36,252 nt of DNA. It comes from a virus. Its lineage: Duplodnaviria > Caudoviricetes. The stretch spans positions 1 through 36,252 of the IMG/VR virus record IMGVR_UViG_3300038379_000967. One strand, 5' to 3'. Position 1 is the stretch's first letter. The number at the start of each line of letters is the position of its first letter. A model generated the notes under the pieces. It saw only the letters and a list, made by a program, of their open reading frames with translations. It was not told the DNA's origin and did not search any database. Below are positions 1,132 to 11,294 of the stretch, piece by piece. A program made the position numbers and the translations under genes.

Positions 1132-1286
1132 GCTTCATACCCCTCGAGATCGACGAGCACGTCCCGGCCGCGCTTCACGAAGAATGTCCACTTGCCGGAC
1201 GCGCGGTTCTCTCGGACGGCCCGCTCAGTGTAGCCGGTCAGCTCGGCGAACCGGCGGATGCGGACGTGGCGGACGGCGTCGGTCAC
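969..1286 (-). CDS. xis: Excisionase-like winged-helix protein overlapping the int start
   Basis: GTG at 1286 coupled to upstream stop (GTGA); VRIRRFAELTGYTERAV...GRDVLVDLEGYEAW resembles phage Xis; directly upstream of int. Confidence 0.75.
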   Translation of the reverse strand: MTDAVRHVRIRRFAELTGYTERAVRENRASGKWTFFVKRGRDVLVDLEGYEAWARGESASSTAGSRSATRSTGNVAGKSSSGETPRSIAQRLSSLRPRSTSAPAT

Positions 1287-1780
1287 GGCTTGTCCCGGAG
1301 GTTGAGCGAGGGGCGGAACTTGCGAATATGCGCAAGTTCGGCATCTTCCAGCCGGCGCGGGCTGCAATGCCGGACACGGGCGCCGTCCCAGTCCTTCGAG
1401 GATCGCAGGTGCTGCGCGAGGCGCTCCCGGACGTGCACGGAGCGGCCCACGTAGACCAGCTCCCCGCCGCGGAACAGGAAGTACAGGCCCGGGTCATTCC
1501 TCGCCTGGCTCCACTGGGGCAGACGCAGGATGTCGGCCATGGACAGCGGCTCCACGGGCGCCTCGGGCAGCGTGAGCCCGGACTCGGCGACGAAGGGCTC
1601 CCACTTGGCCACCATCGGTCGCGGGTCGGTCGAGCCCACCTGGTCCGCTGGCACCGCCGGCCGGCCGTCGGCGCGGACGAAGAAGCGCAGGCCATTGCGG
1701 GCGAGCCAGCGGCGCTGCGCGGCCGGCTGCTTGCGGCCCGTCAGCGTCGCGACGTCGGCGTCTGAGAGAAACGTGCTCAC
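1283..1780 (-). CDS. DUF4224 (Xis-like) domain fused to a GIY-YIG nuclease domain
   Basis: N-term FLSDADVATLTGRKQPAAQRRWL..NG..F..RADGRPAV; C-term GLYFLF...VYVGRS..VRERLAQH...E..I....PSLN. Confidence 0.75.
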   Translation of the reverse strand: MSTFLSDADVATLTGRKQPAAQRRWLARNGLRFFVRADGRPAVPADQVGSTDPRPMVAKWEPFVAESGLTLPEAPVEPLSMADILRLPQWSQARNDPGLYFLFRGGELVYVGRSVHVRERLAQHLRSSKDWDGARVRHCSPRRLEDAELAHIRKFRPSLNLRDKP

Positions 1781-2025
1781 GGCCGAGCTATCCGCCGCAC
1801 GTTGCCGGTCGAGGCCTCGGCCTTCGACTCCACCGGGATGAAGCCGGACCCGGTGCCGTTCGTGTGCTTGATCAGGTCGGCCTCGACCTTCGCCGAGTTG
1901 ACGATCACCTGGGCCACGTCCGCGATGGCCTTCGCCCGGTCGAGTGGCATGGGGTTGTCCTTGTCCGCGAGCCCTTCGAGGGCCGAAAACAGGTGGTTAC
2001 GCAGGTCCTCGATCTTGTTCTTCAC
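1777..2025 (-). CDS. Conserved phage hypothetical protein
   Basis: DLRNHLF..LE.L...RAKAIADVAQVIVNSAKVE motif, which I recognise as usually following an HNH gene; coupled overlaps. Confidence 0.8.
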   Translation of the reverse strand: MKNKIEDLRNHLFSALEGLADKDNPMPLDRAKAIADVAQVIVNSAKVEADLIKHTNGTGSGFIPVESKAEASTGNVRRIARP

Positions 2026-2677
2026 GTCGCTCCTTTCGGTTGATCTTGCGGATGAGGGCGCCGCGCAGCTGGACCACCTGGGCCAGCTCCTTCGGCAGGT
2101 TGTGAACGCTATTCCGGCGCATCAGGGCGCCGCGCGGCACGAGCTCGAGGTTGGCGAGGGCGATGTGCTCCCGGTTGCCGTCGCGGAACACGACAGCGTG
2201 CCCCTTCGGCACCGGACCGTGCGCCTCCTCCCAGACCAGGATGTGCACGAACTTCCAGTTGAACCGGGACATGCCCTTGGGCGCGTCGTCTCGGATCTTC
2301 CTCTTCCGGTAGCCGTCGCCATCCACCACTTCCGTGCCCACCGGGACCCAGGTGACCGGCCTGTTGCCGGCCTTGTAACGGGTCTCCGCCGAGCGACCGC
2401 CAGCGGTGTAGTGCAGGCCCTTGTTCCAGGACGTCTGCCCCTTCCGGAACCGGGTGGATGACCCGCGGGTCCCGTCCAGGCGGCCGCTGTCGCCCGTGTC
2501 GAAGAAGGCCGCCGACTTGCGCAGGCCCAGCTTGTAGGCCCGCTGGTAGACGGACAGCGGCTGGCGGCCGAGGTCGTGGGCGATGTCTGCGGTGCGCTCG
2601 CTCGGGTATCGGCGGCGCAGGACGCGGTCCTCTGCGGGCGTCCATCGCTGCCTGGGTCGGCGCTCAGTACGTGCCAT
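1997..2677 (-). CDS. HNH endonuclease (HNH_3 type) with N-terminal helix-turn-helix-like region
   Basis: HILVWEEAHGPVPKGHAVVFRDGNREHIALANLELV; WT..EDRVLRRRYP N-terminus; start reassigned to ATG 2677. Confidence 0.85.
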   Translation of the reverse strand: MARTERRPRQRWTPAEDRVLRRRYPSERTADIAHDLGRQPLSVYQRAYKLGLRKSAAFFDTGDSGRLDGTRGSSTRFRKGQTSWNKGLHYTAGGRSAETRYKAGNRPVTWVPVGTEVVDGDGYRKRKIRDDAPKGMSRFNWKFVHILVWEEAHGPVPKGHAVVFRDGNREHIALANLELVPRGALMRRNSVHNLPKELAQVVQLRGALIRKINRKERREEQDRGPA

Positions 2678-3014
2678 AGTCCGCCCCCTGCTTCTCCTGC
2701 CAGCTCGCCTCGGTGGCCGCCGACCTGGTTGCCTCCCGCCGCTCACGCTCGTCCTGGGCCCGCAGCCGGTTCAGCGTGGCGACCTGCTTTTCGAGCCGGT
2801 TGACCTGGTCACGGAGATCCGCGAGCCGCCGGTCGGCATCCCTGACGGCCTGGGCGTGGCGCCGGAGTTCGCCGATCTGCCAGCGGAGCTCGGCTTCGAC
2901 CGCGAGTGAGCAGTCCCGGCCCATGGCCCGACCCAGGGAGCCTTCGCGCTTCACGGCGGAGCGCTCCAGGGCCCGGACCACGTCCTCGAGGGGCGACACG
3001 GTCGGGGCGGTCAT
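2664..3014 (-). CDS. Hypothetical coiled-coil protein
   Basis: Heptad-like charged C-terminal half; overlaps both neighbours in the operon. Confidence 0.6.
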   Translation of the reverse strand: MTAPTVSPLEDVVRALERSAVKREGSLGRAMGRDCSLAVEAELRWQIGELRRHAQAVRDADRRLADLRDQVNRLEKQVATLNRLRAQDERERREATRSAATEASWQEKQGADYGTY

Positions 3015-3232
3015 CGGGATCTCCGGTGCTGGTCAGCGTTGGGGCACGTGCTCCAGTGGGGCACGTGACGGCCCTGTTCGAACTCGTCGTCATCGGGCTG
3101 CACCGAGTGGGCGTCGCAGGGCATGTTCTTCCCCTTGGCCGTGGGCAGCCAGATGATCTGCGCCCGGCAGGAGCGGCAGCGGGTGATGCGGCGCTCGTGG
3201 GTCTCGTTGGTTTCGTCGGCGTCGAAGCTCAC
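3011..3232 (-). CDS. Small putative Zn-binding phage protein
   Basis: GTG 3232 coupled to ATPase stop; CRSC...IIW..T.KGKNMPCD...HWSTCP. Confidence 0.75.
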   Translation of the reverse strand: MSFDADETNETHERRITRCRSCRAQIIWLPTAKGKNMPCDAHSVQPDDDEFEQGRHVPHWSTCPNADQHRRSR

Positions 3233-4887
3233 TGGAACAGCTCCTCGCTGGCGCGCAGCTCCCCGCGGCCGGTAACCAGCTTCAGGCTCCGCAGCCGGCC
3301 CAGGTACTTGGTCCACGTCCCACTGCCCAGCACCAGGCGCGAGCGGGCGGCGCACTGGTGCGTGCTCATCGACTTCGGATAGACCGCGAGCAGCGTCTCG
3401 AAGATGCGGCGCTCGCCACCGCCGCCCAGCCAGTCGGCCCAATAGCGGCGCAGGGCCTCGCCCGTGGGCAGCGGCTCGAACGGTCCGACCGCCTTGAGTC
3501 CCGCCGGGGTGATCCGGAGCGTCTCGCCGCCCTCGACCAGTCCGGCGGACCGGAGCGCGCCCAGGTACTTCGTCCAGGTGCCGCTGCCGCGGATGAGCTG
3601 GGCGAGGAGGGCCAGGCGCTGCTGGGACAGGCCAGCCGGGAATTGGGCCAGGGCGATCAGGATGCGGCGCTTGCCGTCCTTGCTGGCCGGGCCGGGGGCC
3701 GGGCTACCAGCGTGCCCGTTCATCCTGATGGGCGGTTTCGGCCTGTCATCCTGATAGGTGGCGTGCGCCGGCGGGATGTTGGGCGCCGGGGTCTCGTCCG
3801 GTCCCATGCCGGTCCGCTCGGCCAGCTGGGCCTTGATGGCCTCCGGGAGAATCTTCAGCCAGTCGGCCGCCTGCTCCGTGGCGCTGTTGCGCCCCTTGAA
3901 GTGCCCTTCGCGGTAGCCCTGCTCGTACCCGGCAGTGAAGCCGGCGTCATAGGCCGACTGGATCGCGGCCGGATCAGGGGCAGAACTATGGCGTTCTTGT
4001 GCCACATTTATGCCAGAGTTCTCGGGCTCGTCGGCAGCCAGCAGCGCCCGGAGCTCGCCCACGTCGAGAGAGGCGGCGGCCCGCGGCTCCTCGATGACCT
4101 CGCCATCCTCCGGGGCCCGGGACGAGTCGAAGGTGCGGATCGCCGGGAACGTCCGGCGCTCGAGCAGCCCGGCGTCAGGGGCCCAGAGCCAGCCCTCGCC
4201 GCGCTTCAGGCGCGCCAGCGTGTTCAGGACCTCCCGGCCGGCCGTCTCGTCGCCCTGGCCCTGTATCCATGCCTCGATGGCCTTCCGGTCCTGGGGTGCC
4301 ATCAGCTTCATGGCGATCAGGGTGTTCGCCTGGGTGAGGACGTTCTTGCTGAGCACCGCCGGCCGCTGGGTGATGAGCGTGACCCGGAAGCCCTTGATGC
4401 GACCCCGGCGCACGATGCGGTCCATGTTGCCCAGCATCCGCCGGCACTCCGGCAGCGGGTTCTGCGGCATGAACTCGTCGGCCTCGTCCACGACCAGGTG
4501 CAGCGGCGCCTTGTTGATCCGGTAGACCGCCTCGGCGAAGCGCTCCACGAAGCGGTGCCGCTCGGAGAGGAGCAGTTCGGACAGGTCGATGACGGCCGAG
4601 GCGCCCTTGCCGATCAGCCACTCGGCGACCTTCCCCGCGTCGCCCTCGGCCAGCGGCACGTCGCCGTGCTCGCCGCCGATGACCGCGATGGGGAAGCCCG
4701 GCGTGTCATCGGCCATGGAGCGCAGGCCCCACCACGCGCCGGTGGGGTCCAGGACGATGACTCGGCGGTTCGCCTCGAGGAGCCGCTCGACCAGCCCCTT
4801 CGCGGCGTAGGTCTTGCCGCTCCCTGTGCGCCCGACGATGGCCAGGTGCGTGCTCATGATCTCCAGCGGCACTGCTGCCTTGCTCAT
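3229..4887 (-). CDS. HerA/FtsK-superfamily (DUF87-like) ATPase with two tandem C-terminal winged-helix repeats
   Basis: Walker A GRTGSGKT, LDPTG, Walker B LVVDEAD, RRGR..G, ITQRP; GSGTWTKYLG.LRS occurs twice. Confidence 0.9.
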   Translation of the reverse strand: MSKAAVPLEIMSTHLAIVGRTGSGKTYAAKGLVERLLEANRRVIVLDPTGAWWGLRSMADDTPGFPIAVIGGEHGDVPLAEGDAGKVAEWLIGKGASAVIDLSELLLSERHRFVERFAEAVYRINKAPLHLVVDEADEFMPQNPLPECRRMLGNMDRIVRRGRIKGFRVTLITQRPAVLSKNVLTQANTLIAMKLMAPQDRKAIEAWIQGQGDETAGREVLNTLARLKRGEGWLWAPDAGLLERRTFPAIRTFDSSRAPEDGEVIEEPRAAASLDVGELRALLAADEPENSGINVAQERHSSAPDPAAIQSAYDAGFTAGYEQGYREGHFKGRNSATEQAADWLKILPEAIKAQLAERTGMGPDETPAPNIPPAHATYQDDRPKPPIRMNGHAGSPAPGPASKDGKRRILIALAQFPAGLSQQRLALLAQLIRGSGTWTKYLGALRSAGLVEGGETLRITPAGLKAVGPFEPLPTGEALRRYWADWLGGGGERRIFETLLAVYPKSMSTHQCAARSRLVLGSGTWTKYLGRLRSLKLVTGRGELRASEELFQ

Positions 4888-5417
4888 GCTCCGACGCTCC
4901 GGTTGCGGCGGACGGATTCGCGAATCTTGCGGACGTGGTCCGCCGTGAACTTCTTCCCGGTGAAGTGGTGGCGGGCATGCTCCGCCTGGCTGGGTAGCAC
5001 TTGCAGGTTCGCCGGGTCGTTGTTCCGCTTGTCCCCATCCAGGTGATGCACGACCTCGCCGGGCAGCAGCTTCCGACCCAGCGCCCGTTCGGCGATGACC
5101 CGATGGGCATGCCTACCACCGAGCTTGATGTACGACTTCCCGGCGCCTCGCCCACGGAGCCGATCGGCGCGCGCGGCGACGGTTGCCCTTGCGACGGTGG
5201 CGTTGTGGTCCGGCGGGTTCTTCGCCATGAACCCACAGCGCCGCGAGCAGTACACCTGGCCCGGGTACTTCCGGGCAACGGCGAACTCCGCCCCGCACTG
5301 GGCGCATTGGCGCAGGCAGAGAAGCCGGCGGGGATCGCGCTTGTACCCGGGCACGTGGCCCGTCTTGCCCACGATCGCGACGTGAGTCGCCATGATGTCG
5401 AGGGGGATGGGCTTCAC
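4884..5417 (-). CDS. HNH (homing-type) endonuclease with CxxC/CxxxC Zn finger, fused to a stub of the ATPase N-terminus
   Basis: HRVIAERALGRKL.PGEVVHHLDGDKRNNDPANLQV...H..HH; CAQC and YCSRRC. Confidence 0.9.
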   Translation of the reverse strand: MKPIPLDIMATHVAIVGKTGHVPGYKRDPRRLLCLRQCAQCGAEFAVARKYPGQVYCSRRCGFMAKNPPDHNATVARATVAARADRLRGRGAGKSYIKLGGRHAHRVIAERALGRKLLPGEVVHHLDGDKRNNDPANLQVLPSQAEHARHHFTGKKFTADHVRKIRESVRRNRSVGA

Positions 5418-5418
5418 G

Positions 5419-6225
5419 TCACGCCGCCTGCTCGCCGGCCGCGTCGCTCGTCACTTCGCCCGTCTCCGGGTCGACGGTCTCGCCGTCCAGGAGGGGCGTC
5501 TCGAGGAGGCCGAGCGCGGCCTTCGCCGCATCGACGCCGCTCGCGGCCGCGGCCCGGGCGCCGCCCATCTCGTAGTGCTCGTTGTCGTGATCGAGCGTCT
5601 GGACCAGGTCGGTCGACATCGGCAGCCGCTTCGCCAGGCGGCGGAGCACGGTCTTCCGGGCCATCTCGTCGTACCAGCCCTTCCAGGGGCCGCTGTCCTT
5701 CGCCCGGCTCACGTTCCTGACCTGCTCGATCTGGCCGCGGCTCATGACCTCGGTGTAGACGCCGCCGTCCTTGGTCTTCGCGATGGCGTAGGCGGCGATC
5801 GTGTCGCCCCGGTCCTCGGCCAGCACGTTCGGCTCGTGGGTGATGTGCTCGCCGGCGTCGTCGATCCAGTAGCGGAACACATCCTGCTTCTTCACGACGT
5901 TGGTCGACAGGGACAGGAGCTCGCCGGAGTTCCGGACCTTCTTCAGCACGCCGGCGGCCATCGGCATGTACTGGATCTGCTTGCCGTAGGCGACGAAGGC
6001 AGCCTCGCGGCCGTCCGGCAGCAAGCCGTCCTGGGCGCACTTCATGGCGGCCGAGAAGAGGGAGCGGCGGTCGCCGTCCAGCAGGCTCGGGTTCTGCTGG
6101 AGCGCGGTCATGGTGATCCGCATGAACTTGTCCGGCGAGACGTGGGGCGGCAGCACCATCTGGAACTGTGGCTTCATCTGGTCCAGCTGGGTGCGGACTT
6201 CGGCGATGGCGGTGGTCTTGGACAT
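5419..6225 (-). CDS. recT: RecT-family single-strand annealing protein
   Basis: LPPHVSPDKFMR, AQDGLLPDG, W..WYDEMARKTVLRRLAKRLPMS. Confidence 0.93.
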   Translation of the reverse strand: MSKTTAIAEVRTQLDQMKPQFQMVLPPHVSPDKFMRITMTALQQNPSLLDGDRRSLFSAAMKCAQDGLLPDGREAAFVAYGKQIQYMPMAAGVLKKVRNSGELLSLSTNVVKKQDVFRYWIDDAGEHITHEPNVLAEDRGDTIAAYAIAKTKDGGVYTEVMSRGQIEQVRNVSRAKDSGPWKGWYDEMARKTVLRRLAKRLPMSTDLVQTLDHDNEHYEMGGARAAAASGVDAAKAALGLLETPLLDGETVDPETGEVTSDAAGEQAA

Positions 6226-6237
6226 GGGGATACCTCG

Positions 6238-7134
6238 CTATTTCAGGAGAAAACGACGGCTGGAAGACTCGACGCGGAAGGCCGCGGCGATGTCGGGGTG
6301 GGCGGCGGCGAGCGCCTTGGTATCTAGCCGGCTCGACGTGCAGGCCTTCCAGGTGGCGAGGGCCTTGCCGTCCGGGCCGAGCAGCGCAGAGCGGTCCGCC
6401 ATGAAGAGTTGCAGCTGTGTCTGCAGGCGTTCCTCGTCCGCCTCGGCGGCCTTGCGTCGACTGCGGGCGGCGTGGAGCTCCAACCAGGCGTCCAGGATGT
6501 CGTCGGTCGCGACCACCGTCGCGCCGGTATCCGTCGGCCAGCGCAGGCGGACGTCCGTGCTGTTGATGATCTCGGGCGGCTGGTCGGCGACGACCCGGTC
6601 CCAGAAGGCGACTTCCTTCTCGGTGAGGGCCTCGATCACGGACGGGCTCCTCGGGATCCGGTAGACCCGCAGGTCCCGTGCCGCGAACAGCACCGGCATC
6701 CAGAGGATCTCGACGCCCTCCTCCAGGCATGCCAGCTGGTGCTGGGCTTGCAGCATGTAGTGCAGCGGGACCTGGTCGGAGCCGTCGTCGCCCCAGCCCT
6801 CGGCGCTGCCGGAAGTCTTCGCCTCGACGGGGACGCCGTCGGCCATGCCGTCCAGGGTCGCCCACCGCCAGGGCAGACGGGGGTCCACAATCCGGCGCTG
6901 CTGGTCGGTGACCTTCACCCCCTCCCGGTCCTCGAACGCGCGCAGCACCACGGGTTCAAGAGCCTTGCCGACGCGCATCGGCAACGTCTCCTCGACGGCG
7001 GGCGCCCGGCCGGTCTTCTGCAGGAACAGCTCGAGCGGCGACATCCACGGCGACAGCCCGCAGGCCGCGGCCGCCTCACTGGCGCCGAGGCCCTGGCGGC
7101 GATCGTGATCAGGGAGCGGTGCGACAGCGTTCAT
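6238..7134 (-). CDS. YqaJ-like viral recombinase exonuclease
   Basis: RRQGLGASEAAA..GLSPW.SP..L...K, G..LEP, ATLDG, EAKT, Y..Q.QHQL; start reassigned to ATG 7134; adjacent to recT. Confidence 0.92.
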   Translation of the reverse strand: MNAVAPLPDHDRRQGLGASEAAAACGLSPWMSPLELFLQKTGRAPAVEETLPMRVGKALEPVVLRAFEDREGVKVTDQQRRIVDPRLPWRWATLDGMADGVPVEAKTSGSAEGWGDDGSDQVPLHYMLQAQHQLACLEEGVEILWMPVLFAARDLRVYRIPRSPSVIEALTEKEVAFWDRVVADQPPEIINSTDVRLRWPTDTGATVVATDDILDAWLELHAARSRRKAAEADEERLQTQLQLFMADRSALLGPDGKALATWKACTSSRLDTKALAAAHPDIAAAFRVESSSRRFLLK

Positions 7135-7136
7135 GC

Positions 7137-7214
7137 TCAATCTCCGAGCCAGATGCAGACGAGCGGCAGGATCACCGCCAGGAAAAGGAACGCGGGAAGC
7201 GCCTCGCGCGTCAT
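7137..7214 (-). CDS. 25-aa single-transmembrane peptide MTREALPAFLFLAVILPLVCIWLGD (not in the ORF track)
   Basis: ATG overlaps upstream stop (ATGA); fills the gap to yqaJ; hydrophobic core. Confidence 0.55.
   Translation of the reverse strand: MTREALPAFLFLAVILPLVCIWLGD

Positions 7215-10298: not shown

Positions 10299-10299
<1 letters not shown>
10081..10299 (+). CDS. Hypothetical protein
   Basis: SD GGAG before GTG 10081; stop overlaps next start. Confidence 0.7.

Positions 10300-11286
<987 letters not shown>

Positions 11287-11294
<8 letters not shown>

Follow-up and report, generated by a model that had tools for sequence, protein, structure and literature searches.

An HNH endonuclease gene inserted, together with a replacement gene start, into the HerA-like ATPase gene of a temperate phage: a likely case of splicing-free homing

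Why should a nuclease gene and the ATPase gene directly downstream of it begin with related peptides? The question is raised by a provirus record from IMG/VR (IMGVR_UViG_3300038379_000967), of which a stretch of 36,252 nucleotides was analyzed (hereafter the window, to which all positions refer). A lambdoid early region lies on its minus strand and comprises a repressor, a YqaJ exonuclease, RecT, an HNH ORF, a HerA/DUF87-like ATPase, small ORFs, a second HNH gene and an integrase. The HNH ORF (4884–5417, minus strand) encodes 177 aa from a GTG start, matches Pfam HNH_3 (E = 2e-13) and the HNH families of PHROG, and has an N-terminus reading (M)KPIPLDIMATHVAIVGKTG, while the ATPase ORF behind it begins MSKAAVPLEIMSTHLAIVGRTG, followed by SGKT. 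An earlier note on this DNA had proposed that the HNH gene is an intron-less homing element which entered the ATPase gene at its Walker A codons, appropriated the start already present there and repaired its target with a recoded duplicate.

The first 60 nt of the HNH ORF (5358–5417, minus strand), here called the stub, are the 20 codons with which the ATPase gene originally began, ending at the second glycine of Walker A and now fused in frame to the nuclease. The present ATPase gene starts instead with a replacement 5′ end of 22 codons (4822–4887, minus strand), which may reach a few codons farther, and whose ATG overlaps the HNH stop in a shared ATGA (4884–4887); by ORF translation, the present Walker A codons (4810–4833, minus strand) lie across the right-hand junction of the insert. 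Over 16 shared codons the two starts agree in 12 residues and differ in 17 of 48 nt (65% DNA identity), and their leading residues are also unlike. The earlier description of the two as the same peptide is therefore right as to homology and wrong as to identity, since 4 of the 16 residues differ in addition to the leading ones. The longest exact DNA match between the two starts is only 6 nt, so that a duplication introduced by assembly is not the explanation. HNH translation presumably begins at 5417, and might instead begin at the GTG of codon 22.

Upstream, the stub is preceded by a RecT annealase gene (5419–6225, minus strand; Pfam RecT, E = 2e-44), whose stop codon lies 2 nt before the GTG of the stub; with the stub fused in frame at this position, the proposal that the nuclease took over the original start of the ATPase gene stands. 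Behind RecT lies a YqaJ/RecE-like exonuclease gene (6238–7137, minus strand; Pfam YqaJ, E = 2e-24; phrog_434), and the two products likely form a recombination machinery suited to short homology arms, a role suggested by their families. No promoter or terminator was found, there was no GC anomaly, and the RNA fold at the ATPase start was not unusual (z = 1.27). Elsewhere in the window, a gene next to the integrase (1283–1780, minus strand) combines an excisionase-like DUF4224 domain with a weakly matched GIY-YIG-like one (Pfam E = 0.007), and a replication protein (DUF1376; 10299–11294, plus strand) carries a long GQ repeat. The second HNH gene (1997–2719, minus strand; phrog_1891) resembles the stub-bearing one in its motif only.

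Alleles of the same site that are free of the HNH gene were found in public metagenome contigs, compared over positions 3200–6400 of the window. One run (X1), identical over the whole stretch, was excluded from the independent ones because the window may derive from it. In both of the remaining runs, X2 and X3, which come from two other studies (read depths 24.5 and 2, respectively), position 4824 is joined to 5362 with one letter between; the contigs skip 4825–5361, giving a net insert of 536 nt that corresponds to 4822–5357 (minus strand) and consists of the HNH body and the replacement ATPase start, the latter being missing from these empty alleles. The X2 allele differs from the window at 2 of 56 nt in the stub and, in the ATPase body, at 98 of 846 nt with 8 further gaps; the X3 allele differs at 10 of 57 nt and at 103 of about 857 nt. 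Up to the junction the ATPase body of the window is ∼88% identical to the empty allele, with no listed difference over 4763–4794, in a listing that leaves out the 30 nt beside the junction. Upstream of the GTG, the X2 sequence is unlike the RecT end of the window, with a loose end at 5417; the stub is thus the sole left-hand homology between these alleles.

Intact ATPases point the same way. The nearest among the listed homologues (P0202; 85% identity over residues 1–260) is identical to the stub over its first 20 residues and runs on into an intact Walker A, while the next-best match to the stub, among 119 ATPase homologues and the window's own ATPase, is 15 of 20, so that the agreement is not due to chance. 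The ATPase of an IMG/VR locus without HNH (L048) also has a start almost identical to the stub. The empty alleles and the intact homologues support the view, on sequence grounds, that the stub is the original 5′ end and the downstream start a foreign replacement. Occupied and empty alleles of one site thus both occur, as is looked for in a homing endonuclease, and the insertion together with its replacement gene start is well supported as real. On these points the earlier note fared well: the span that it gave for the insert is exact to the base, the stub and the ATPase when rejoined do make the intact gene seen in X2 and X3, and HNH-free alleles carry the N-terminus that it expected. As to the ATPase of the window, its body is nearest to P0202; for the first 31 residues six other homologues give the higher scores, in a comparison of scores over a short 5′ part.

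A gene that is restored by deleting 536 nt invites comparison with an intron, an intein or a ribosomal hop, or else suspicion of the assembly. Any of these is hardly credible here. The insert codes for protein over its whole length and is out of frame, the ATPase has a start of its own, there were no Rfam matches at E = 1 and Pfam shows no Hint domain, which agrees with the earlier proposal that no intron is involved; the two copies of the gene start are, moreover, only 65% alike, and a second locus (L147, below) independently shows the same anatomy.

The interrupted gene (3229–4887, minus strand) encodes a HerA/DUF87-like ATPase of 552 aa with an intact reading frame (DUF87, 44.2 bits against a cut-off of 23.2). 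It is HerA-like only, scoring 61.6, 45.4 and 54.4 bits with the named HerA families NF040819, NF042943 and NF042944, whose cut-offs are 970, 800 and 850. Its nearest solved structural relatives are HerA proteins. In the C-terminal part (3229–3700, minus strand) a short motif occurs twice, and P0202 has weak ArsR/Sso10a matches; the repeats are possibly tandem winged-helix domains. As a host gene, the ATPase seems dispensable.

The nuclease itself has the order four-cysteine finger, helix, HNH_3 motif, and scores 50.1 bits with the HNH_3 profile (PF13392; cut-off 24.8). The predicted zinc finger (C38, C41, C57 and C61; 5235–5306, minus strand) is invariant in two alignments, weakly resembles the YacG/uS14 fingers and is likely the DNA-binding part. 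The catalytic region (Pfam residues 102–145; 4983–5114, minus strand) is intact, with H124, H125, D127, N132 and N137, and is directly followed by H147 and H151; in the alignment of homologues H124, D127, N132 and N137 are invariant and H125, H147 and H151 nearly so. A structure model was of moderate quality (mean pLDDT 77.7, pTM 0.39; 49–58 in the stub region), and a fold search with it gave no match at E = 0.001. The best structural match is I-HmuI (PDB 1u3e), an HNH_3 homing nickase, which is matched weakly and over the HNH motif (profile E = 0.13, fold E = 0.13); unlike I-HmuI, the present enzyme has a zinc finger and a helix in front of that motif. I-HmuI is intron-encoded. Judged by its family, our enzyme would be expected to nick DNA. 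The protein also holds an internal GxGK[ST]Y stretch (at about 5130–5150, minus strand) that looks like half a Walker A; since distant HNH genes have it too, the likeness is probably a coincidence.

The HNH clade was located in other genomes with a clade-specific pattern, which gave seven loci: one viral, five metagenomic and one in Bradyrhizobium oropedii. The ATPase lies directly behind the HNH gene in five of the seven, compared with none of the 87 distant HNH loci listed (Fisher p = 4e-7, the loci being not fully independent). Scans of IMG/VR with the single HNH protein and with the alignment returned distant HNH genes only (at least 87 loci), and this ATPase was at none of those listed. 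One locus, L147, repeats the full anatomy of the window. At L148 the same stub peptide as in L147 is followed by a distant ATPase whose start mismatches it; at L145 an unfused stub with its own stop precedes the HNH gene and, again, a distant ATPase with a mismatched start. Stub and HNH are followed by unrelated genes, with no ATPase behind, at L149 and L150, and at most three residues of a stub are left at L146 (where HNH is frameshifted) and L151. Sequences from L147, L148 and L149 can be aligned well only from inside the stub onward. The ATPases of the clade loci are 24–48% identical to one another, except those of L146 and L151 (69%). Repair of the target, which the earlier note regarded as part of the process, is therefore not universal, given L145, L148, L149 and L150.

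Several further observations were made at these and related loci. In L149 (2818) the upstream gene, stub and HNH are near those of L147, and an unrelated gene replaces the ATPase at the same ATGA overlap. An orphan ATPase start that ends a few codons after Walker A was seen in L170 (about 1470–1580, plus strand); over the next 1.5 kb it is followed by neither an ATPase gene nor an HNH gene of the clade, and it is possibly a remnant. Two ATPase starts in L178 (1400–2400, minus strand) proved to be a tandem duplication of ∼690 nt without an HNH gene between them, one copy being truncated and the other longer, with different Walker A codons. In L092 (2848–4415, plus strand) a distant HNH gene overlaps the start of another P-loop ATPase behind a phage exonuclease, and no stub was seen.

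Other HNH proteins also carry stubs, as a survey of the kind proposed in the earlier note revealed. Based on a profile of 119 intact ATPase starts, an ATPase-type stub scores at least 20 bits in 22 of 301 HNH homologues with a leader (that of the window included). The first scoring had given, at the same threshold, 26 of 328 proteins, from which four were dropped: P0062, P0102 and P0396 were false matches caused by HNH's own internal GxGK[ST] stretch, and P0140 was without the early CxxC. Three proteins that look as if they had short stubs (P0036, P0143 and P0026) scored below 20 bits and were not counted, nor was the one extra weak stub from a search of 50% clusters (P0322; 19 bits). As many as 21 of the 22 are known as proteins, with genomic context for few (L148, L149 and L150, corresponding to P0004, the P0011 type and P0022). 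The stubs are concentrated among the closest HNH cores (21 of 73 in the top bin), and they end at profile columns 12–24, none extending beyond the Walker A lysine in the 22 homologues; we infer that the Walker A codons of the empty allele are the target region.

Within this family the identity of the stub shows no significant correlation with that of the core (rho = 0.09, Mantel p = 0.27, over 210 pairs of 21 proteins), as illustrated by P0010 and P0012, whose cores are 80% and stubs 33% identical. On the tree the stubs are dispersed (18 changes among 24 labelled rows, against a shuffled mean of 21), the tree being a quick one and poorly resolved, with 9 of 83 branches starred. Diversity and scatter are compatible with captures that took place repeatedly, from different ATPase alleles, and with some later erosion. 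The earlier note would have taken it as a refutation if HNH homologues carried this N-terminus regardless of their neighbours; in its strong form this is not the case, given that the stubs vary in sequence and length and that an ATPase lies behind five of seven.

HerA-family ATPases often partner with nucleases, and the nearest solved relatives of this one being HerA proteins, the HNH enzyme and the ATPase could form a functional nuclease-motor pair (of the HerA/NurA or anti-phage HerA type) with the stub as a binding or regulatory peptide; the translational coupling of the two genes would agree with this. We consider such a pair very improbable. The nearest relatives are without HNH, which was found at none of 56 ATPase loci (five of them with shortened upstream flanks), stub length ranges from about 12 to 24 profile columns, the stubs track the local ATPase rather than the nuclease, and the stub region is of low confidence in the structure model.

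The element is rare. Besides its absence from the 56 loci, HNH was present at only 1 of 26 pattern-found ATPase loci, which is L145's own contig. In a genus sample of 301 genomes the ATPase occurred in seven (E = 1e-40), with HNH at that locus in the centre genome only, and in the alphaproteobacterial class sample the element was found in 1 of 401 genomes, again the centre genome itself. Among cultured phages, no clade HNH was found in the 69 records with a match, and the ATPase was in one record. Such rarity is among the points in favor of passive mosaicism, in which one old illegitimate fusion of HNH to an ATPase start was followed by RecET recombination that swapped stubs and moved the cassette, without cutting or drive. 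Two crossovers alone give the same anatomy, RecE and RecT adjoin the element, the HNH gene of L146 is frameshifted, and L149 and L150 are without the ATPase. This account is nevertheless unlikely in our view: mean core identity in the HNH clade is about 59% and yet the catalytic and zinc-binding residues are conserved, the link to one target gene holds across ATPases that are only 24–48% identical, and the ends of the stubs halt at the Walker A lysine.

We favor homing, with a probability of roughly 0.6: the 536-nt element, HNH plus foreign start, would spread when its nuclease nicks or cuts empty alleles in or close to the Walker A codons and the element is copied in during repair. In a cell that harbors a phage together with a prophage, or with a second phage genome, HNH would cut the empty allele somewhere in its first 30 or so codons. 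On its left side the break would pair with the donor stub, as the gene upstream varies from phage to phage and offers no other homology, and on its right side with the donor ATPase; RecE and RecT would suit such short arms. The recipient's own start would then end up fused to HNH, which would inherit the translation start of the ATPase, and the ATPase would be restarted from the donor's copy via the ATGA overlap, both outcomes corresponding to the anatomy observed. The donor copy, a foreign allele and not a purpose-made one, would be so divergent that it is spared from cutting and that loop-out between the copies is hindered.

Homing might also proceed from a cut farther inside the ATPase gene, in the manner of T4 seg/mob, with the stub serving as the upstream arm only and the Walker A limit marking the end of homology. 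Distant cutting is the rule for free-standing T4 nucleases as described in PMC2988022, and the whole ATPase has apparently been replaced in L145 and L148. In the window, by comparison, the ∼88% ATPase match extends to the junction, so that a long foreign tract could hardly fit in unless a close relative was the donor, and we regard a distant cut as improbable, to much the same degree as passive mosaicism.

All eight degenerate codons common to the stub and the replacement differ (p = 0.03, for 8 of 12, by expectation from the codon usage of the window; p = 0.017 by expectation from 26 HNH-free alleles). Codon tests used these 26 loci, about half of the ATPase loci being omitted as they were without a GxxGxGK[ST] match at the expected place. 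Degenerate codons that are all different were also found in 10 of 193 pairs of HNH-free alleles, so that a foreign allele accounts for most of the divergence. Lower GC3 at occupied Walker A regions was not significant (p = 0.08); purposeful recoding as a strong claim was rejected on this result and on the equally divergent pairs. The start that the earlier note described as a recoded replacement is, accordingly, a foreign allele, and "recoded" overstated the matter. Synonymous divergence mildly above that of unrelated alleles (p = 0.017–0.05) weakly hints at selection against self-cutting or against RecET loop-out.

One unusual spelling of Walker A is common to L146, L147 and L151, though the ATPase body of L147 is only 33–37% identical to the other two. 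It occurs in 1 of the 26 HNH-free loci (L001), while HNH-free relatives of L146 and L151 (L154–L156; L154 at 74–75%) use the common spelling. An HNH-free close relative of L147 (L054) shares with it the first three codons of the unusual spelling. The downstream Walker A residues of L147 equal those of the intact P0202, and any resistance there would thus rest on synonymous changes. The L001 ATPase, with its occupied-type spelling at about 2530–2570, may descend from an occupied allele by loss of the nuclease, or may have been converted without gaining one.

Several known systems resemble parts of this arrangement. In the WHO elements of Torulaspora and Lachancea yeasts (PMC7282813; bioRxiv 10.64898/2026.08.13.744650) a nuclease gene has the complete host gene on one side and a fragment of that gene on the other, without splicing, as in the window. 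The fragment is the second homology arm, and each homing exchanges one end of the host gene for that of the donor (PMC7282813). The same source describes replacement of the 3′ half of FBA1, LAGLIDADG enzymes, independent transcription, non-coding fragments, clusters and experimentally demonstrated cleavage. In the present case, ∼20 codons at the 5′ end are replaced, the target is a HerA-like ATPase of a temperate phage, the fragment is usually fused in frame and supplies the start codon, no clusters were seen and cleavage is only predicted. The enzyme is of the zinc-finger/HNH type, in which Pfam finds only HNH_3 and no HO-related LAGLIDADG domain, and the element is thus not a WHO member. By analogy, it is likely a phage mirror of yeast WHO homing at the 5′ end, equally free of splicing.

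Among phages, MobA in the T4-type topoisomerase gene 39/60 is an HNH gene inside a coding sequence, without splicing, that carries a divergent copy (67–81% DNA identity) of the target codons replaced (bioRxiv 10.1101/2022.08.31.505936), and our element is like it in each of these respects. There the divergent copy alone failed to block nicking, and the gene is split into two working halves with added tails and ribosomal bypass (same source); here, the ATPase is restarted whole as one 552-aa ORF, and what lies to the left is a short stub that forms the front of the nuclease. Fungal mitochondrial endonuclease ORFs (Allomyces atp6, Ophiostoma rps3), as described in PMC4019555, bring replacement C-termini: they likewise supply a foreign homologous gene end while the host gene stays whole, at the 3′ end and with other nuclease families, in contrast to the 5′ end in phages. 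The "intronless homing" of free-standing T4 seg/mob nucleases involves genes between other genes, conserved flanks and cuts hundreds to thousands of bases away (PMC2988022); the window is similar in having an intron-less HNH gene beside its likely target with overlapping start and stop codons. No duplicated gene start is described for T4 free-standing nucleases in the accessible portion of PMC2988022, or at nuclease genes in those of PMC10448857, PMC12724721 and PMC5626475. The literature searched, which included few subscription journals, yielded no paper on this HNH clade, on its target or on a gene start captured in frame. What sets the element apart is that it has taken up the host start in frame; for the arrangement as a whole, WHO, MobA and the fungal mitochondrial elements are precedents.

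Whether the whole phage HNH clade forms a splicing-free, start-capturing class of homing elements seems to us evenly balanced. In such a class each invasion would take 12–24 ATPase codons as both homology arm and translation start, with no need for a conserved upstream gene in mosaic temperate phages, and a resistant start, a distant ATPase or none would be swapped in, amounting to an arms race over Walker A like that of the yeast WHO elements. With both natural alleles defined to the base, and with an enzyme of only 177 aa, the question of resistance is directly testable. If homing is confirmed, the element would be a bacterial-virus, 5′-end counterpart of the WHO elements, which the accessible parts of their descriptions place so far only in yeasts (PMC7282813; bioRxiv 10.64898/2026.08.13.744650). 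It would also mean that neither an intron nor an intein is required for a selfish nuclease to attack a conserved motif within a gene, even where the neighbour genes are not conserved, and the captured stubs would be a record of past hosts.
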